From: an uncultured bacterium
GTDB taxonomy: Bacteria > Patescibacteriota > Saccharimonadia > Saccharimonadales > UBA4665
Assembly: GCA_965652795.1 (NCBI GenBank)
Contig: CBFGXJ010000005.1
Span: forward strand, 25-64,024
Length of the DNA: 64,000 nucleotides
Reading direction: 5' to 3'
In this document: in pieces, positions 13,924 through 40,631 of the stretch
How the letters are laid out: the number at the start of each line of letters is the position of its first letter
Numbering within the stretch: position 1 is the stretch's first letter
The notes under the pieces: model-generated
What the model saw: the letters and a program-made list of their open reading frames with translations, nothing else
The model's database searches: none
What the model was told of the DNA's origin: nothing
Translations under genes and position numbers: made by a program

Positions 13924-14046
13924 ATGGTTAGCATTATCCGCGCTCGCCTCTATGTTCGCAAGCGCTTTATGCTGAGGGCTCCGAAAAATTCGGACATTTT
14001 ATTACTAATCATTGTTTTTGTGTTTTAGCTCAAGTCATTGCCGGGA

Positions 14047-14060
14047 AGCTACAGGGACTC
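14047..14060 (-). repeat. partial duplicate of the tRNA-Ala 3' region (T-loop/T-stem/acceptor)
   Basis: agctacagggactc is identical to 14166..14179 inside tRNA-Ala, in the same orientation, about 100 bp beyond the tRNA 3' end. Confidence 0.55.
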
Positions 14061-14119
14061 CATCTGGTCGAAGTAAACAGCCAGTGGCTGTTTGCACACT
14101 ATTCGTCTCATCCCCTTCT

Positions 14120-14165
14120 CCACCAAAGAAAATACCGGATCAATGTCCGGTATTTTCTTTGGTGG
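14120..14165. terminator. 20-bp perfect hairpin abutting and overlapping the tRNA-Ala 3' end
   Basis: ccaccaaagaaaataccgga-tcaatg-tccggtattttctttggtgg. The right arm includes the encoded CCACCA end of the tRNA. Confidence 0.75.
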
Positions 14166-22330: not shown

Positions 22331-25377
<3,047 letters not shown>

Positions 25378-29377: not shown

Positions 29378-29454
29378 TGGTGGGCGCTGAGGGACTCGAA
29401 CCCCCGACCCTCTCGGTGTAAACGAGATGCTCTAGCCAACTGAGCTAAGCGCCC
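29378..29454 (-). tRNA. tRNA-Val (anticodon UAC), CCA encoded
   Basis: GGGCGCTTAGCTCAGTTGGCTAGAGCATCTCGTTTACACCGAGAGGGTCGGGGGTTCGAGTCCCTCAGCGCCCACCA. Perfect 7-bp acceptor stem and anticodon loop UUUACAC. Confidence 0.93.
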
Positions 29455-29578: not shown

Positions 29579-30310
29579 CTAGTGCATAACCTCCAGGCGG
29601 GCCGGCTGGGCCGGGTCCCCCGGGCCGCGGGCGGCGTTGTCGTGAACCGCCAGGTGGGTCAAGGATCGAATATTGGCCATCGGCATGACCATCGTGGCGT
29701 GCCTTGCGTCGGTATGTGCGATTTCAAAGGCAGGCCGCGGCACCATCGAAGCATCCGGTTCTTTGCCGGGCAGTTTATCAAGACTCTGGCATACCTGGAT
29801 GGCCCGGGTATTGTTTGCGAATGTCCTGGCCCATAATCCGTTGAAAACCTCACGGCTCGGCTGCGGGCCGCTGGTGCGCTCAATAGCATAATCTACCACG
29901 ATCGCTGCTGCGAATTGCTCGGCCAAACCCCGCTGACGATATCTTTTGGCGAGCCGAAACTCGATAGTGTCTTTAGGCCGTGGCGCCCCGTCGAGACAAG
30001 CATCTACGGCTTCGAACATATCTTGACCGCCTACCAGGGGCTGCACCCGGCCCCAGCCATACCCGCCCAGACTGCCGCTCGGCGAGACTAACCAATACGG
30101 CATGATGCTGCCCTGGCCCAGGCGCTGATTCAGGAATCTCCAGGTCTCGCCCACATCCGAAAAACGGCTTTCGGCATCAGGCACCCAGTTAAATATGTGC
30201 GGGTCCTGAGCCAGGCGTGGCAGTTCCAAAAACCACTCTCCTATACCACGGTACACCTGCATGGCAGCGCCCTTATCGTCATAAATCGTTCTGAAGTACT
30301 CTGCGTTCAT
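29579..30310 (-). CDS. GNAT-like acetyltransferase-fold protein with ~55-aa C-terminal extension
   Basis: IEFRLAKRYRQRGLAEQFAAAIVVDYAIE (motif A-like, Q/RxxGxA) and LWARTFANNTRAIQVCQSL (N..A... motif). TGATATAGT box at 30320..30328 makes the ATG at 30308..30310 the likely start. Confidence 0.55.
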   Translation of the reverse strand: MNAEYFRTIYDDKGAAMQVYRGIGEWFLELPRLAQDPHIFNWVPDAESRFSDVGETWRFLNQRLGQGSIMPYWLVSPSGSLGGYGWGRVQPLVGGQDMFEAVDACLDGAPRPKDTIEFRLAKRYRQRGLAEQFAAAIVVDYAIERTSGPQPSREVFNGLWARTFANNTRAIQVCQSLDKLPGKEPDASMVPRPAFEIAHTDARHATMVMPMANIRSLTHLAVHDNAARGPGDPAQPARLEVMH

Positions 30311-30434
30311 AGTTTGCATACTATATCATAATTTGAATGTGATTGCTTGTGATTTTTGTACTGTTGTTCACTACTTTCAGTACCTCTGTAAAAACGGATT
30401 GTCGTTGGCGAGCTACTCCGGATATGGTTAAATA

Positions 30435-31676
30435 GTGTTACTGACCGTAAAAAACAAAGTGTATCCGCAAAATTACCCCAGCCCATCCAAGAAACTCCGC
30501 CCGGCAACCATCGCATACATAGCCGGTGCCGCAGCTGTTGTACTGCTGATAATCGGTATCGTCATATGGAACAGTCGCTCAGGCGACCAGCCGACCCAAG
30601 ATACTGGCAAAACCCCCGCCAAAACCCAACCGGCTACACCCGAAGGGGGCAAAACCACCCCGGACACTACCACCAAGCCAAAGACCGACGATCCCAAAGC
30701 GAAAGATCAACCCAAAACGGACGCCAAAAAACCGGCCCAGACACCCAGCTCGCAGCCATCTGCCGGCGGCAGTACCTCGCCGGGCTCTTCCGGCTCTTCC
30801 GGCTCCAGCGGCGGCGGCACCTCCGGAGGCGGCTCCAGCGGTAATCCGGGCACGTCTTGCAGCAGCAGCGCCACCCACACGAACGACGGTCCCGATGGCG
30901 CCGGCGGCTGCTGGCCCGGCGCTTCCAACACCGGCGTACCCAGCGGCACGGTGTTGACTGCGTATAGCGGCCCGTCGACCATAACCACCTCAGGTACGAC
31001 TATCATTGGCAAAACCATCAACACTGACCTGTTCATTCAGGCCAGCGGCGTCGTCATAAAGAACTCGCGTATTAACGGCCACATAGATGTCGACGGCAAC
31101 GGGTACTCCCTGACGATTGAAGACTCCGAAGTCCACGCCAGCAGCACCTCGGCACCAGCAATCGGTTATAACGACATAACTGTGCGGCGCGTTGAGGTCA
31201 CCGGCGGCCAGCATTCAATCTCGTGCAGCGGCAACTGCGTCATCAGCGACAACTGGCTGCACGACCAGTACAACCAGCCCGGCGGCTCATTTCACAATAA
31301 CGCCTTCATAAGCAACGGCGGCAACAACATGACACTCACCCACAACACGCTGGACTGCACACCCGAAGACAACGGCGTCGGCGGCGGCTGCACCGCTGAC
31401 GCGTCGTTCTTCGGTGACTTTGCGGCCATCACCAACGCAACCATCAACAACAACCTGTTCGTTGCCACCCCGTCGGGCGGGTACTGCGGCTCATTTGGCC
31501 ATAATCCGGGCAAACCATTCCCCACGCCGTCGAACGTGGTGGTGACGAACAATATTTTCCAGCGCGGCCCAGGCGGTGTCTGCGGGATCTGGGGGCCAGC
31601 CACGTCATTCTTGGCCGGGAGTGGCAGCAGCTGGTCGAATAATAAGTATGATGATGGGTCGGTCGTGAATCCGTAG
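30435..31676 (+). CDS. membrane-anchored surface protein with right-handed beta-helix-like C-terminal domain
   Basis: N-terminal TM helix, Lys/Pro/Thr/Gly/Ser low-complexity linker, then repeated (I/V)xN(N/S)x(I/F/L) turns (VIKNSRING, CVISDNWLH, MTLTHNTLD, ATINNNLFV, VVVTNNIFQ). GTG start uncertain. Confidence 0.72.
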   Translation: MLLTVKNKVYPQNYPSPSKKLRPATIAYIAGAAAVVLLIIGIVIWNSRSGDQPTQDTGKTPAKTQPATPEGGKTTPDTTTKPKTDDPKAKDQPKTDAKKPAQTPSSQPSAGGSTSPGSSGSSGSSGGGTSGGGSSGNPGTSCSSSATHTNDGPDGAGGCWPGASNTGVPSGTVLTAYSGPSTITTSGTTIIGKTINTDLFIQASGVVIKNSRINGHIDVDGNGYSLTIEDSEVHASSTSAPAIGYNDITVRRVEVTGGQHSISCSGNCVISDNWLHDQYNQPGGSFHNNAFISNGGNNMTLTHNTLDCTPEDNGVGGGCTADASFFGDFAAITNATINNNLFVATPSGGYCGSFGHNPGKPFPTPSNVVVTNNIFQRGPGGVCGIWGPATSFLAGSGSSWSNNKYDDGSVVNP

Positions 31677-31718
31677 GTAGGGTGACAGGACGTTAATCGA
31701 GCTTTTGGTGAGGACGCG

Positions 31719-31976
31719 CTAAGATTCGAAGAAGCTTAAACCGATCCAACGACCAATTTGCTTACCATTATCGCCATATTGAGTAATAATGAAGTCCCCT
31801 GCGTATAGCCGCTCCATAGTAGAGTCGTTCTTGTCTCTTTGACTCAGAAAGTCATTTATTACAAATCGCAAAAAAGCTTTAGCACGGTCTTTTTCTTGGA
31901 AGCTCCATGTATCGCTGTTTGTCCGATTTACTATTACGTATTTGGCATGCGCTGCAGTTAGATTTTTTGTATCCAT
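31719..31976 (-). CDS. hypothetical protein (85 aa) in the low-GC islet
   Basis: TAGAAT box (31983..31988) 6 nt upstream of the ATG. No recognisable domain. Confidence 0.45.
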   Translation of the reverse strand: MDTKNLTAAHAKYVIVNRTNSDTWSFQEKDRAKAFLRFVINDFLSQRDKNDSTMERLYAGDFIITQYGDNGKQIGRWIGLSFFES

Positions 31977-32110
31977 ATGCTGATTCTACACTAGTGCTAA
32001 GAAAAGTTGAATCCTTAGCCAGACTAAGCTTTAAAATTCCATGACAGGTGTCAGGACTCGAGCGTATGTAGCTGAAAGAATTAAGAATACGAAGGTGCTC
32101 AAATTCAACG

Positions 32111-32131
32111 TGGTGCGGATGAGAGGGCTTG
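32111..32131 (-). repeat. tRNA-Leu 3'-end fragment (variant copy, 19/21)
   Basis: The reverse complement CAAGCCCTCTCATCCGCACCA differs at 2 of 21 positions from the tRNA end CAAGTCCTCTCGTCCGCACCA. Confidence 0.7.
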
Positions 32132-32148
32132 CTTCCTGTACGCGCCAA

Positions 32149-32841
32149 CTACTTACTTACGGTCACTTCGTTCACAATAAACGCATCAACACCGGACTTA
32201 ACTACATCGTTGCTATTGCCCAGCTTCTCCGTGTAAGCAGTAACCTTAAAATTTCCAGGGGGAATGTTAGCGTCCGCGAGTATTTTTTCAAGCCGATCTA
32301 TTGTGTAGCGAGTTTTGATTCGGCCGTTTTCGTTAAAGACGCCCTCTTCTTGCTCCGTGGCAGTTGTGGCGAGGAACTCCATTTCTGCACTATCATCAGG
32401 AGATTTGAGCGAAAGATAGCTTTTACCGCCACTTCGTAAGATTCGATACACTTCTGAAAACAATTGAGCAAGCACTTTGGACTCAAAATAATGCAAGGCC
32501 AGACGCGAATAAACAATATCCACTGAGCTATCTTCTAAGGGCAGCTTGCCAAAACTAAAATCGCACTGAAGCGTTTTATGTTTGTCTGCAAGGCCCAACT
32601 CGTTTGCATGAGCATCGGCCTTAGCTAGAGGCTCATCGGCAATATCCACCAAGACAACCTCGTGCCCTTTTTCGGCAAAATAAATGCTGTCGGTGCCCGT
32701 GCCGCCGCCAAGGTCGCAGACCTTTGAGTTCCTGGGAAATTCCTTTTCCTTTTCGGCCGCGTATAACGAATGGCCTTTATCGTCGGGGATGCGTGCGCTG
32801 TTCTTGTTCCAGAAATCCTGTAAATCAATCATATAGTCCAT
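32149..32841 (-). CDS. class I SAM-dependent methyltransferase (small-molecule type)
   Basis: Motif I VCDLGGGTGTDSIYFA, motif II VDIVYSRLALHYF and post-II ILRSGG. GC about 40%. The ORF-track N-terminal extension runs over a tRNA fragment and was rejected. Confidence 0.8.
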   Translation of the reverse strand: MDYMIDLQDFWNKNSARIPDDKGHSLYAAEKEKEFPRNSKVCDLGGGTGTDSIYFAEKGHEVVLVDIADEPLAKADAHANELGLADKHKTLQCDFSFGKLPLEDSSVDIVYSRLALHYFESKVLAQLFSEVYRILRSGGKSYLSLKSPDDSAEMEFLATTATEQEEGVFNENGRIKTRYTIDRLEKILADANIPPGNFKVTAYTEKLGNSNDVVKSGVDAFIVNEVTVSK

Positions 32842-32860
32842 GATACAGCAATTTAGATTA

Positions 32861-32880
32861 AAGAGGGCTTGAACCTCCGC
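32861..32880 (-). repeat. tRNA-Leu T-arm fragment (variant copy)
   Basis: The reverse complement GCGGAGGTTCAAGCCCTCTT matches the T-stem/T-loop. It shares the 10-mer agagggcttg with 32122..32131, so the methyltransferase gene is bracketed by a direct repeat. Confidence 0.6.
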
Positions 32881-33083
32881 TAATAGATGATAGTTACAAC
32901 AAGAAAAGTCCCGAGAATACATTCTGAAGTACGGCTGGGCATTTTGCCAAACTCGGCCGCGCGCTCGCCGGTTTGCTTATTAAACCAAGTACTTATACCG
33001 TTGTGCCAGTATCATAAGGGAGAAAACGATTTCAAACAAAAAGAGTTCGAAAACCAAACTCTTTTGTATCTGTTACTTCAACT

Positions 33084-33104
33084 TGGTGCGGACGAGAGGA
33101 CTTG
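33084..33104 (-). repeat. exact 21-nt duplicate of the tRNA-Leu(GAG) 3' end (att-like)
   Basis: tggtgcggacgagaggacttg is identical to 33211..33231, in the same orientation, 106 bp beyond the tRNA 3' end. Confidence 0.85.
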
Positions 33105-33171
33105 TTTTCTGTTTGCAGCAGACTACCACCGGCAGTCTGCCTACTTTCCGTCAAGTCCTCTCTATTCAAGA

Positions 33172-33210
33172 CTAGTAAAATACCCTGGGCAAGCCAGGGT
33201 ATTTTACTAG
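33172..33210. terminator. 17-bp perfect hairpin abutting the tRNA-Leu(GAG) 3' end
   Basis: ctagtaaaataccctgg-gcaag-ccagggtattttactag, directly adjacent to the CCA end (33211). Confidence 0.78.
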
Positions 33211-33295
33211 TGGTGCGGACGAGAGGACTTGAACCTCCACGGGTCACCCCACTACCACCTCAAAGTAGCGCGTCTACCGATTCCGCCACGTCCGC
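33211..33295 (-). tRNA. tRNA-Leu (anticodon GAG), CCA encoded
   Basis: GCGGACGTGGCGGAATCGGTAGACGCGCTACTTTGAGGTGGTAGTGGGGTGACCCGTGGAGGTTCAAGTCCTCTCGTCCGCACCA. Long variable arm and anticodon loop UUGAGGU. Confidence 0.93.
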
Positions 33296-33319: not shown

Positions 33320-33348
33320 AGTATACGCTAAAAAGGTGGATATCTCAA
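33320..33348 (-). promoter_or_regulatory. promoter of tRNA-Leu(GAG) (TTGAGA-17-TATACT)
   Basis: -35 is the reverse complement of 33343..33348 and -10 the reverse complement of 33320..33325, 24 nt upstream of the mature 5' end. Confidence 0.5.
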
Positions 33349-33370: not shown

Positions 33371-36055
33371 CTAGGCTGAAGGCAGGCGGTCGTAGGCGAC
33401 GGCGACACCGGTTTTGGTTAGCACGAAGGGCGTGGTCACCCGCTGACGGGAAAGTTCCTGAGCCCGCTCGGCAAAGGTAGCGTTGGCTTGCTGCAGGTTG
33501 GCGGGCGCTGCTGCGTCGGTAGCAGGTGCTTCGCCTATCGTGACCAGCCGCTCAAGCACGTTAAAAGGCCGGCCGTCAGGCCCCGCCTCGACACCGCGCA
33601 GGCTGGCCAGGCGGTCGGCCATAGACGAGCCGAGCGCCCTAACCTGCCCGTACATGCCGGGGTCTACGCCGCTGGCCTGGACCTCGCCGCTGTCGGCAGG
33701 CGGCAGCTGGGCCATAATGGCCGGCATATCAACGGGCGGCGGTACGTCATACATACTAATAGGTGGGCGGATAAGGACTTCTTCAGGATGTACCCTGCTG
33801 TAGCCTACCAGCCCCGCTTCTTCGGCCATATCCATTAATGGCTCCAGTAGGCCGCGCCATGCCGCATAGGCGGGCAGGTCGCGACCGGCAATGGTAAAGT
33901 CGGGGTTACGTTCCATAACGTACGCAATCAACGCTTGTTCGTGCCGCAGTTGCAGGACCCCTACCCCTTGACCGCTATAGCGCATGAGTGTTTCGTTATA
34001 CTCTTGGTTCGGGTCAAGCTGCAATCCGGTCACCCCGTGAAGCGGCGCCCCGCCGCCCAGTCTGCTCACTTCGGCAATCAGCTCTTTTTGGAATGATCTC
34101 AACCGGTCGTTCATGAGCTGCGGGCCGCTCTCCGTCCTGTCACGCGTGTACCCCAAAGCCTCCAGCGCGGCCGGCACATAGCTACCTACTGCCGCTTGCG
34201 TCAGGAATCGGTCAAGTGATTCGCCCAAGACGATCGGCGTGCCGGCTTCATGCAGTTGCTGGAGCGTATCAGCCAGCTGCCCGCCCTCTACATTAAGCCG
34301 GGCCGGCAGCGGCGCGTACGTATCGCCCAATCTCTCGGCCAGCCGGGCACGTACCGTCTCTGGCTGCATACGGAACATAGCCATCAGCCTGCCGTATGCA
34401 GGATTAGCCGTCACCAGCGCCGTCGCTTCAGACGGGATAAACGGCAACCGGAAGCCGATAACCGTATCGGGCGCCTCCAGCCGGGCGGCATGAGCCGCGC
34501 CCCATAAACCGACTATGTCCGCTGCGGTGCCACCGTACTGGGCGCTCCGGATGACGGGTATGGCCTCCGGGGGCGCTGCCTGCTCGTCCAGCCGTACGGA
34601 TGCCGGATACGTGGACTTGAATCGATCCAAAACACCAGTATTCAAGCCCGACGGCGCTGCCCAATCCCCGCCCCTGAAGTAATCCGTCAGTTCGCTCAGT
34701 GCAGTAGTGGTCACCGTCGACAGGCATTCGTCCAGGTTAGCTGTATACGACGGCGAGATACCCTCTAAACTATCCACAAAGTCCTGCACAGCTTGGACGC
34801 TGTCAAAGCCGGCGGCGCGCCACTCAGTTCGCCCTTTCGGGCTGATAGTACGACCTCTAAGCAGTTCGGGGTCATGCAACGTCACGGTAACCGTTTGATT
34901 AGCATCGGCCGGGTTCGTAATAGTGAGCGTCATTGCGCCATAATGGATAGTGACATCGGCAATCGCACGTCGATCGGCCGGCGCTTCGGTGCTCATGCGC
35001 GAGCCGGCGGCAGCCAGTAGCGCCACACCGGTAATATGGTGGGCTTCTTGCGCCGTGCCCAGCCGTTGTAACTCTGGTTGTAATATCACTGCGGTGGCTG
35101 CATTCTGCAGCCTTTGCAGGTCGACAGTTGCGGTATCACGTCTTATTCTTTCCATGAAGTTGGTTATGCTGCGGCCAGGGTAGGCGGTTTCCGGTGTACG
35201 ACCCTCCAGATAGTCGGTAACTTCAGCTGGCGGAGCAGTGACCAGGCCGCTTTCTCTGATTTTAGGATGAGCCAGCTTTTGGCTCACCGTCATGGTGCCG
35301 AATATCTCGTCGGCGTACTGCGCCATCTCTACTGCGCGGCGCGAGGCTACGCGGTCTATGGTATCCAGCACGCCGTTCTCCAGCGTCGGCGGCTCGTGTT
35401 TAGACCGGCCGGTAAACGTGGGTTTGGCGACAGGCTTCCAGGGCTTACTTGCGGCAGCCACCAATGCCACCACTGGTGCATCGGCCCGCAGCCGGTCGCT
35501 TACCAGGGCGGCCGTCAGGACAGGGGCATTAACCTGGGTATCGGGCGTCCACAGGACTGGGGCGGGCTCGTCGGCCTGGAGCGTACTTACCCGCAGCACC
35601 GTTGCCATAGCTGCACGATCTTCCGACCTGCCGATGCCGAAACTATCAGGGTCAGGCTTATCAAACAGCGGCGCAAGCATCTCTGCACGGCTCAGCAAGT
35701 ACTCGTCAAGCGGCGATACGCCCGTTGCCGGGTTTACTTCAGAGGAATACCGTTCGGCGGCAGCGGCGTACACATGTGCGCCCAACGCATCAGCAAAGCG
35801 GCGGCGCAGACGCACCCCTGGTACGGGAGCTTCCGTCCAAGCGGTAAAGACCTCGACCATCGACTGCTCTGCCTGCGCAGTGTCGCCGTTGTTCAAATCG
35901 GTCAGTACCGCACCGGCTACGTTCCAATGGTTGGTCAAGTATTCGCCGGCACCCTGCTGAGGGCGTACACCATGGCTATTTCCCCAGGGGAATTCGTGTA
36001 TAGCGGCAGGTACATGAAACTGTGGTTGCTCCGGGGTATTGACTGTTTCGGACAT
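33371..36055 (-). CDS. large orphan protein (894 aa), Ala-rich, predicted cytosolic, no recognisable motif
   Basis: Uninterrupted ORF. ATG at 36053..36055 has SD AGGAG 11 nt upstream and a TGCTATAGT promoter. No signal peptide, TM helix, P-loop or HExxH, and a single Cys. Confidence 0.8.
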   Translation of the reverse strand: MSETVNTPEQPQFHVPAAIHEFPWGNSHGVRPQQGAGEYLTNHWNVAGAVLTDLNNGDTAQAEQSMVEVFTAWTEAPVPGVRLRRRFADALGAHVYAAAAERYSSEVNPATGVSPLDEYLLSRAEMLAPLFDKPDPDSFGIGRSEDRAAMATVLRVSTLQADEPAPVLWTPDTQVNAPVLTAALVSDRLRADAPVVALVAAASKPWKPVAKPTFTGRSKHEPPTLENGVLDTIDRVASRRAVEMAQYADEIFGTMTVSQKLAHPKIRESGLVTAPPAEVTDYLEGRTPETAYPGRSITNFMERIRRDTATVDLQRLQNAATAVILQPELQRLGTAQEAHHITGVALLAAAGSRMSTEAPADRRAIADVTIHYGAMTLTITNPADANQTVTVTLHDPELLRGRTISPKGRTEWRAAGFDSVQAVQDFVDSLEGISPSYTANLDECLSTVTTTALSELTDYFRGGDWAAPSGLNTGVLDRFKSTYPASVRLDEQAAPPEAIPVIRSAQYGGTAADIVGLWGAAHAARLEAPDTVIGFRLPFIPSEATALVTANPAYGRLMAMFRMQPETVRARLAERLGDTYAPLPARLNVEGGQLADTLQQLHEAGTPIVLGESLDRFLTQAAVGSYVPAALEALGYTRDRTESGPQLMNDRLRSFQKELIAEVSRLGGGAPLHGVTGLQLDPNQEYNETLMRYSGQGVGVLQLRHEQALIAYVMERNPDFTIAGRDLPAYAAWRGLLEPLMDMAEEAGLVGYSRVHPEEVLIRPPISMYDVPPPVDMPAIMAQLPPADSGEVQASGVDPGMYGQVRALGSSMADRLASLRGVEAGPDGRPFNVLERLVTIGEAPATDAAAPANLQQANATFAERAQELSRQRVTTPFVLTKTGVAVAYDRLPSA

Positions 36056-36097
36056 AGACAACAAAACTCCTACATAACAGCTACGTTCGTGTCACAT

Positions 36098-40548: not shown

Positions 40549-40550
40549 AT

Positions 40551-40585
40551 AGTAAAAGACTCTGGCCAAGCCAGGGTCTTTTACT
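40551..40585. terminator. 15-bp hairpin 2 nt after the tRNA-Leu(CAG) 3' end
   Basis: agtaaaagactctgg-ccaag-ccagggtcttttact (one G-U pair). Confidence 0.75.
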
Positions 40586-40631
40586 TTCTGATCAAGGGAG
40601 AGGGCTTGCCGGGGTCTGCTATACTGGCTTC

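Follow-up and report, generated by a model that had tools for sequence, protein, structure and literature searches.

A low-GC islet behind tRNA-Leu(GAG) in a Saccharimonadales genome combines a methyltransferase cassette with a structured tRNA-trailer repeat

We describe a low-GC islet (positions 31677–33210) behind the tRNA-Leu(GAG) gene of a Saccharimonadales genome (1.29 Mb, 56.3% GC, 40 contigs), located in a window of 64,000 nucleotides (nt), by which we mean the whole stretch of DNA that was analysed (positions 25–64024 of contig C5). The islet carries a gene for a class I S-adenosylmethionine (SAM)-dependent methyltransferase among nested copies of the tRNA 3′ end, and it is probably a horizontally acquired patch, built in three layers at a tRNA-Leu hot spot in use throughout this Saccharimonadales family. 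One of the tRNA-end copies turns out to be an arm of a multi-copy structured repeat, which we call the tRNA-trailer module.

Saccharibacteria and other members of the candidate phyla radiation (CPR) have tiny genomes with few recognised mobile elements, and the routes by which they gain genes are an open question. The locus described here points to one concrete route: single-gene cassettes that cross between genera hooked to the 3′ end of tRNA-Leu and its trailer, with no recombinase of their own. All relatives used for comparison belong to other genera, and the species itself is represented by this assembly and three others; L-numbers denote compared loci (for example, L024 from GCA_036526215 and L025 from CP066696) and G-numbers compared genomes. 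Feature coordinates are collected in Table 1.

A rare methyltransferase gene of foreign composition

At 44.6% GC, the islet falls within the lowest 2.5% of whole-genome windows of the same size (mean 56.3%, s.d. 4%), and the adjacent beta-helix gene has 59.6% GC. Two 60-nt samples (31721–31780 and 32401–32460), placed at 38% GC in a first-pass annotation made from the letters of the window, were each measured at 38.3%, which confirms the low-GC claim. That annotation had also proposed that foreign DNA is lodged at the 3′ side of tRNA-Leu together with nested remnants of the tRNA 3′ end, a view that the comparisons below bear out.

The methyltransferase is 227 amino acids (aa) long and starts at 32832, not at 32922; its initial assignment to the class I SAM type was correct. 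Pfam assigns it to Methyltransf_25 (1.5e-18) and Methyltransf_11 (6e-18), and its invariant motif DLGGGTG conforms to the GxGxG pattern of Rossmann-type SAM-binding sites. Because its relatives in the PDB are merely generic small-molecule or tRNA methyltransferases (E ~1e-9), we assign no substrate. An extended −10-like box (TGCTGTATCAT) lies 7 nt before the ATG and is kept at all methyltransferase loci, and the mRNA probably has a leaderless start.

Among 401 sampled genomes of the order, only three contain the gene. Its product is 90% identical to the copy at L024 and 79% identical to that at L025, whereas the corresponding values for shared neighbour genes are 58 and 36% (SBP_bac_5), 71 and 41% (M24 peptidase), 61 and 56% (UvrC) and 72 and 43% (holin-like). 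The GC content of the gene is 42–47% in every host, compared to 45–61% for backbone genes, and GC at third codon positions (GC3) in the window copy is 0.50 versus 0.65–0.79 for the backbone. The gene lies directly behind tRNA-Leu(CAG) at L024, L102 and L103, directly behind tRNA-Leu(GAG) at L025 and in the window, and behind a 15-nt tRNA-Leu end fragment at L101; a 49% identical homolog at L032 begins 15 nt past tRNA-Ser(GGA). In two further genomes it stands beside an XRE-type regulator with no tRNA nearby, in one of them also with AbiEii and a VirD4-like gene. Without exception, the gene is associated with a tRNA end or with genes of mobile elements, and no recombinase gene adjoins any of the copies examined, in agreement with the earlier description of the gene as cargo lacking a recombinase in cis. 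These comparisons show that the methyltransferase gene is foreign in origin, rare and repeatedly linked to tRNA-Leu ends.

Nested tRNA-end copies and a conserved cargo junction

The 21-nt 3′ end of tRNA-Leu(GAG) (CAAGTCCTCTCGTCCGCACCA) recurs in the islet in the same orientation, once as a 21/21 match (copy A) and once as a 19/21 match (copy B), exactly where the first-pass annotation had placed the two, and shuffled sequences give an expectation of 0 matches of this quality. Similarity between the copies extends beyond the tRNA part, covering 36 nt at 86% identity (32104–32139 versus 33077–33112); the unit around copy B comprises a CAG-box-like ACAGGAAG, the variant 3′ end CAAGCCCTCTCATCCGCACCA and CGTTGAA. 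In a genome-wide search with the 21-mer, the remaining near-matches were all genuine tRNA-Leu genes. A T-arm variant (GCGGAGGTTCAAGCCCTCT), with no second occurrence in the genome, lies on the other side of the methyltransferase gene and, because it and copy B both carry the 10-mer CAAGCCCTCT, this 10-mer flanks the gene on both sides, as had been noted.

The T-arm variant was originally read as half of a tRNA end split by the methyltransferase insertion, an interpretation that comparison with relatives overturns. The junction to which it belongs (J2), with the motif (GATTTCTA)ATCTGTTGnnnn-GGTTCAAGYCCTCT, occurs behind tRNA-Leu in at least eight genomes from at least five genera, and similarity among these loci stops right after CCTCT, where variable cargo starts. 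The next gene is the methyltransferase in the window, at L024 and at L102; elsewhere it is AHSA1 (in a second unit at L102), NUDIX (G003 and L132), a HAD-type gene (L120) or another gene (G023), and a YdcF-like gene is also among the variable cargo. Since different genes follow a conserved junction, we regard J2 as an old tRNA-Leu remnant, with a start further 5′ within the T-arm, and as the mark of a slot for variable cargo; it was not created by the arrival of the methyltransferase gene. Behind tRNA-Ala(GGC) at L110 (G607:C10), a J2-like ATCTGTTG precedes a fragment of the T-arm of the local tRNA-Ala, so junctions of this type are not limited to tRNA-Leu. Scans of viral contigs with the J2 and right-arm motifs returned three matches, all within unrelated coding sequence, which we took as chance.

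At L024, L101 and L102 the right end of the cassette unit is formed by GAAAAGTKATCTTAACGT, a partial ..GCACCA and NGTTGAAT, and the next unit begins there. The window has no such right-arm motif, and copy B begins 17 nt past the methyltransferase stop codon. Roughly 100 nt separate the methyltransferase stop from the right-arm motif at L024 (6685–6790) and L102 (844–960); this segment, absent from the window, has the potential to encode a small peptide on the reverse strand (..VKITF(T/Q)DD..).

On the tRNA side of the cassette, copy A is followed by a trailer (AGTTGAAGTAACAGATAC) with a hairpin and T-run (term2), which in other genomes directly follows complete tRNA-Leu genes. For example, tRNA-Leu(GAG) on the metagenome contig L130 ends in ..CGTCCGCACCA, with the same acceptor, and continues immediately with AGTTGAATTTACAGATAC, the sequence that follows copy A here. 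Of the spacer between this trailer and J2, ~115 nt are absent from other methyltransferase loci, and its 3′ part (32881–32926) is 80% identical to the tRNA-Leu(CAG) trailer in the relative G023.

An emptier state of the site is present in relatives, as had been anticipated, although it is not the one proposed at the outset, in which tRNA-Leu would be followed by the beta-helix gene. Instead, tRNA-Leu(GAG) lies 9–63 bp from tRNA-Val(TAC) in G011, G012 and G024, compared to 3.76 kb in the window; in relatives of other genera, these two genes are grouped with tRNA-Leu(CAG) in a single neighbourhood of varying spacing and orientation. A DNA search for the empty site among the 40 nearest genomes, a set holding no genome of the same genus, matched the tRNA alone. 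A GNAT-like gene and a 413-aa gene (29579–31676), both of backbone GC, are also missing between Leu(GAG) and Val(TAC) in relatives, which makes all 3.76 kb of the interval variable.

A structured repeat family behind tRNA genes

The module family to which copy A belongs emerged from a genome-wide search, tRNA by tRNA, for further copies of each tRNA's ends. After a tRNA ending in CCA, the layout runs through an A-tract/T-tract hairpin (H1), 12 nt that repeat the local T-loop and T-stem in inverted orientation, GAnGAAT.., a second hairpin of 10–11 bp (H2, inner TGCC-RGY-GGCA) and CTTCnnCAGnnn, and closes with a stretch that repeats the local tRNA directly, from position 56 through CCA. Using a covariance model (R1), we identified 16 copies in this genome, of which 11 lie 34–130 nt behind nine tRNA genes, three lie at contig ends and two lie in a low-GC island behind tRNA-Gln(TTG). 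Module-bearing tRNAs include Leu(CAA), Tyr, Lys, Ser(CGA), Ser(GCT), Leu(TAA), Glu and Ala; those for Leu(CAA) and Leu(TAA) have tandem pairs, in which the distal copy is the more decayed. With the same model, no module was found in the 40 nearest genomes of other genera, and matches were obtained in 9 of 301 family genomes, representing 4 of 102 genera, with 1–11 copies per genome in genus g54. In these other genera (mostly g54), 12 of 16 module loci are located ~37 nt behind tRNA genes of ten kinds, with arms that match the local tRNA.

Across 20 tRNA-linked modules, the direct copy begins 103–111 nt after the CCA in 16 and has a mean identity of 80% to tRNA positions 56–76 (five at 21/21), while the inverted arm matches tRNA positions 54–65 at 81% and the acceptor part at 34%. 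In a clean alignment of 26 module sequences, 85% of cells pair, compared to 33–48% in slid controls. Compensatory two-sided changes were observed at 18 of 22 pairs, including 11 of 11 in H2, and none of 500 shuffles reached the observed score. Covariation of the outer arms is expected because both copy the tRNA, which leaves H2 as the informative part of this result. For the window module, the folding z-score is −8.9 as RNA and −3.6 as DNA, and a search of the islet against Rfam 15 matched the tRNA alone at E ≤ 1, with no family for the module.

At the tRNA-Ala(GGC) locus of genus g54, the module occurs in two species and is absent from two others. In an alignment with the module-free loci L024, L102 and L103 (alignment A5), the window carries an insertion of 127 nt placed precisely between T-loop positions 55 and 56. 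Cargo genes stand behind the modules at tRNA-Leu(GAG) and tRNA-Lys, most modules have none behind them, and several are followed by native DNA of normal GC. Because modules also stand behind tRNAs with no foreign DNA after them, copy A is no evidence for an integrase-borne island, and its first interpretation as an integrase scar gives way to that of the 3′ arm of a module whose family has at least 16 members. Inversion between two divergent tRNA-Leu genes was considered as another source of copy A and rejected: the acceptor in the copy is that of the GAG tRNA, and the copy is part of the module family.

Hairpins of the H1 type are also found behind tRNA-Val and tRNA-Leu(CAG). By shape, H1 and term2 resemble terminators; a strict terminator scan of the window flagged neither, the T-runs being inside the stems. 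The truncated module behind tRNA-Leu(CAG) retains an inverted T-arm piece (GAGAGGGCTTG, 40598–40608) and part of H2 after it. This GAGAGGGCTTG is the complement of the variant T-loop of copy B and J2, and the promoter of the next gene takes the place of the module remainder.

Two other loci are of note. In another genus (L086/L093; G617:C19:70876, 73196), a module behind tRNA-Leu(CAG) has the tRNA-Leu(GAG) acceptor in its direct copy, and an identical module stands 2.3 kb downstream behind a ..GCACCA fragment, such that a cargo segment is bracketed by tRNA-end copies. In the present genome, tRNA-Thr(CGT) (C7:10122–10199) precedes an arrangement of another kind, an 11-bp hairpin directly abutting a 26-nt partial tRNA copy (88%) from G53 to CCA.

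We found no description of such a repeat in the literature searched, and no standard transposon model fits it, because the arms are templated by the local tRNA and the direct copy ends at the mature CCA. Tentatively, the module may be a new kind of element that takes the template for its ends from the tRNA behind which it lands. It is likewise conceivable, with similar reservation, that the direct copy (positions 56–76) corresponds to the span from the T-loop cleavage point to CCA, as in fragments of the 3′ tRNA-derived (tRF-3) type. If the module is templated in this way, insertion would read the mature tRNA or its gene, by RNA-templated, guide-like or fold-back synthesis, and would involve an unrecognised enzyme. 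Alternatively, it could be a selected decoy or landing pad that offers a harmless tRNA end to tRNA-targeting DNA and thereby seeds integrase-free arrays of cassettes.

Table 1 Features of the islet, of the tRNA-trailer module family and of recombinase-bearing islands
Feature	Position	Strand	Basis
tRNA-Leu(GAG), intact	33211–33295	−	ARAGORN; Rfam tRNA 52.7 bits
Promoter-like site	33320–33348	−	Promoter scan
H1, 18-bp A-tract/T-tract hairpin adjoining tRNA-Leu(GAG), terminator-like in shape	33171–33210	−	Inverted repeat, RNA fold
tRNA-trailer module, 88 nt	33084–33171	−	Covariance model R1, 84 bits
Module part: inverted T-arm copy	33151–33162	−	
Module part: 10-bp hairpin H2, GGT loop	33118–33140	−	
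Module part: CAG box	33105–33117	−	
Module part: direct copy of tRNA positions 56–76 (copy A)	33084–33104	−	
Native tRNA-Leu trailer AGTTGAAGTAACAGATAC and second hairpin with T-run (term2)	33037–33083	−	
Spacer	32881–33036	−	
J2 junction, T-arm remnant GCGGAGGTTCAAGCCCTCT	32862–32880	−	
Extended −10-like box TGCTGTATCAT	32840–32850	−	Alignment A5
Class I SAM-dependent methyltransferase, 227 aa	32149–32832	−	Pfam, homologs, rarity, GC3
Copy B unit (variant 3′ end at 32111–32131)	32104–32139	−	
85-aa orphan open reading frame	31719–31976	−	
Weak acceptor-end-like string tggtgaggacgcg	31706–31718	−	
tRNA-Val(TAC), far edge of variable interval	29378–29454	−	
Second window module, behind tRNA-Ala(GGC)	14039–14126 (R1 match C5:14063–14150)	−	
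Truncated module and H1-type hairpin behind tRNA-Leu(CAG)	40549–40620	+	
Further modules	C3:38572–38754; C13:7445–7533; C24:735–822; C14:18990–19078; C14:23824–23912; C4:37706–37866; C3:9668–9731; C20:18805–19014; C22:47–134		
Low-GC islands, each edged by a large serine recombinase	C8:46500–52321; C4:66000–75004; C18:550–5196		

Recombinases in the genome

The first-pass annotation had attributed the tRNA-end copies to tyrosine integrases that have since decayed. It was right that no integrase gene is left in the islet, in that no open reading frame (ORF) with a Phage_integrase fold occurs between 29455 and 33210. The enzyme class, however, lacks support: the only tyrosine recombinase of the genome is a single Xer-like gene (C7:26964–27434), as in 9 of 15 relatives checked, including most of the module-bearing ones, and no integrase fragment was found at ~10 related cassette loci.

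The recombinases that do occur at tRNA ends in this genome are of the large serine type, although serine integrases seldom target such ends. There are three, with Resolvase and Recombinase domains, and none is at tRNA-Leu(GAG). The first terminates within the tRNA-Pro(TGG) 3′ end and borders a 6-kb low-GC island whose far end keeps just GAGCCGACCA, a remnant of ~7–10 nt; the frame of the second runs into the 3′ end of tRNA-Gly(GCC) at a contig end; and the third adjoins ychF. Regarding other enzymes, the genome has no RVT_1 reverse transcriptase, so a tRNA-primed retro-mechanism would be without its enzyme here. Y1_Tnp/RAYT transposases (PF01797) are absent from this genome and from the module-bearing relatives checked (genomes G000, G407, G554, G607 and G617); DDE transposases and Cas1 were not searched for.

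A proposed layered history and its alternatives

Our account of the locus starts from its observed anatomy, from the covarying repeat family and from a cassette that has no recombinase gene next to it. The ancestral layer would comprise tRNA-Leu, the trailer AGTTGAA..ACAGATAC, a hairpin and J2, with a gene after J2 that varies by genome. Here the slot holds the methyltransferase gene with its own −10 box, which probably travels between genera together with a tRNA-Leu end and trailer. A second layer may be preserved on the right side, where the parts of the left junction (CAG box, 21-mer, GTTGAA) recur at copy B, as would be expected if a circle or an imported fragment had recombined at ..GCACCA/NGTTGAA, the point at which we infer that cassettes are joined. 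Beyond copy B come the segment with the 85-aa orphan ORF and perhaps a third, older remnant. In the most recent layer, insertion of the ~88-nt repeat probably separated the tRNA from its former 3′ end and gave rise to the perfect copy A. Catalysis may have been provided in trans, with the large serine recombinases at other tRNA 3′ ends of the genome as candidates; alternatively, homologous exchange after DNA uptake could have been anchored by the conserved tRNA and trailer.

Several observations weigh against this account. No recombinase is linked to any of the ~10 methyltransferase or J2 loci examined. Serine integrases normally leave just a few shared bases, whereas copies A and B have 36 nt in common, and a 21-nt copy is more readily explained by the repeat family or by homologous recombination than by serine integration. 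The insertion at tRNA-Leu includes H1, yet the empty tRNA-Ala sites of genus g54 already hold a hairpin of this type. Copy B could be a decayed module end instead of an attachment (att) site. The islet is 100% identical in the three other assemblies of the species, and no current mobility was seen. Finally, strong purifying selection would also make the methyltransferase look more conserved than its neighbours, although selection alone would not account for its rarity or GC content.

It is unlikely, but not negligibly so, that the islet records two or three islands or prophages whose tyrosine integrases crossed over in the T-loop and which decayed to cargo and att remnants. The direct copies all begin in the T-loop and reach CCA, which is a typical sublocation for such events (PMC4383910), J2 would be an older remnant starting further 5′ in the T-arm, and tycheposon islands offer examples of cargo arrays split by partial tRNAs (10.1101/2020.12.28.424599). 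Yet this explanation has to accommodate a copy A that belongs to a set of 16 or more modules sharing a fixed design, several of them before native DNA of normal GC, as well as the single Xer-like gene in this genome and in 9 of 15 relatives, the lack of integrase fragments at ~10 related cassette loci, and 'elements' of merely 106, 950 and 400 bp. Vertical inheritance, in which the methyltransferase would be an old neighbour of tRNA-Leu lost by most lineages, its low GC local or gene-specific and the tRNA-end copies by-products of the repeat family, appears very improbable. It would agree with the position of the gene behind tRNA-Leu in six genomes, with the absence of polymorphism within the species and with the ancestral character of J2 and the trailer, but the gene occurs in 3 of 401 genomes, has 79–90% identity against 36–72% for backbone genes and has a GC3 far under that of the backbone; moreover, the isoacceptor in front differs (CAG or GAG), and two genomes have an XRE neighbour with no tRNA nearby.

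We give somewhat more credence, while still considering it doubtful, to the view that the module is a functional RNA or DNA structure, either a mimic or decoy of the tRNA 3′ end or a landing pad, and that the methyltransferase cassette recombined with this decoy. Double changes preserve H2 pairing at 11 of 11 positions, the inverted arm is complementary only to the T-loop and T-stem part (81% versus 34% for the acceptor), orientation and distance from the tRNA are fixed (103–111 nt in 16 of 20), and cargo follows modules at tRNA-Leu(GAG) and tRNA-Lys, with further modules inside the tRNA-Gln island. However, most modules have no cargo behind them, no Rfam family matches, and an occurrence in only 4 of 102 genera that is variable within a genus is more in keeping with a selfish repeat than with a necessary function. 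A mobile module would represent an unusual targeting principle and a functional one a new tRNA-linked structure; either way, such sites are natural landing-pad candidates for Saccharibacteria genetic tools.

Comparison with known systems

With Islander-type islands (PMC4383910), the locus shares an intact tRNA, foreign DNA of deviant composition that is absent from relatives and direct 3′-end copies beginning in the T-loop. It differs from them in that the islet lacks an integrase and the genome lacks any tyrosine recombinase other than the Xer-like one, in units of 0.1–1 kb and in that one of its 'fragments' belongs to a multi-copy structured repeat. Tycheposons, described as islands of Prochlorococcus, are also built by successive insertions that push older ones outward and leave cargo split by partial tRNAs (10.1101/2020.12.28.424599). 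As in that case, we find a streamlined genome with few classical mobile elements, islands beside tRNAs and degenerate remnants; tycheposons, however, carry tyrosine recombinases and replication genes, neither of which we found here, and the present cassettes are small single genes that bring their own promoter. The absence of an integrase in cis, the single-gene cassettes and a structured repeat that supplies one of the tRNA-end copies set this case apart from both tRNA islands and tycheposons.

Cargo lacking a recombinase and flanked by recombination sites is familiar from cis-mobilizable elements (CIMEs), pdif modules and integron cassettes. The methyltransferase cassette is similar in that one cargo gene lies between two site copies, the 36-nt units at 33077–33112 and 32104–32139, with the same design at L024, L101 and L102 and arrays at L101, L102 and L132. 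In those systems the enzyme is encoded elsewhere and, by analogy, this could hold for the present cassette. The site, however, is a tRNA-Leu 3′ end with its trailer and not attC, dif or the att site of an integrative and conjugative element (ICE), and the methyltransferase has its own conserved −10 box, whereas integron cassettes are usually promoterless. A reading of GTTGAAT after CCA as an integron-like attC was discarded since there is no IntI.

The module, in turn, is comparable to small structured repeats (survey in PMC2267715) such as miniature inverted-repeat transposable elements (MITEs), repetitive extragenic palindromic (REP) sequences and bacterial interspersed mosaic elements (BIMEs): it is short (~88 nt), multi-copy (16 in this genome), lineage-restricted, intergenic, non-coding and hairpin-forming, with inverted arms. 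In contrast to these, it has no fixed termini, its arms being copies of the upstream tRNA (12 nt inverted; 21 nt direct, positions 56–76); it stands at a fixed distance behind tRNA genes; and no Y1/RAYT transposase was found in the module-bearing genomes checked (PF01797 in the five genomes named above). Elements with large serine recombinases offer a last comparison, because two of those in this genome terminate precisely in a tRNA 3′ end, that of tRNA-Pro(TGG) and that of tRNA-Gly(GCC), at the edges of low-GC islands. None has its gene at the edge of the insert at tRNA-Leu(GAG), and the distal remnant at tRNA-Pro measures ~7–10 nt rather than 21–36 nt.

Other features of the locus and genome

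Between copy B and the beta-helix gene lies the orphan ORF of 85 aa, with 39.5% GC, a GC3 of 0.38 and TAGAAT 7 nt before its ATG. The ORF exists as first annotated, the suggested search for homologs outside the species found none, and its coding status is uncertain. Next to it, a 13-nt acceptor-end-like string (tggtgaggacgcg, 11/13), possibly the oldest remnant, is real and sits at the GC drop, as had been reported; about two chance matches with no more than two mismatches are expected per window, which puts the match itself at chance level, and it is suggestive only through its site at the GC drop and its orientation.

A second low-GC island (C2:21700–31000; ~9 kb, 38–48% GC) is located behind tRNA-Gln(TTG) and contains two modules (24943–25028 and 30929–30993) and a tRNA-Gln T-arm fragment (29413–29432). 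No recombinase was seen in its ORF list, on which no Pfam search was run; judged by eye from the translations, its cargo includes NUDIX, HD, NYN-like and other small genes. Upstream of tRNA-Leu(GAG), an 897-aa ORF (33371–36064) with no Pfam match is without counterpart at the syntenic loci of 12 relatives, where an FAD oxidase gene adjoins the tRNA.

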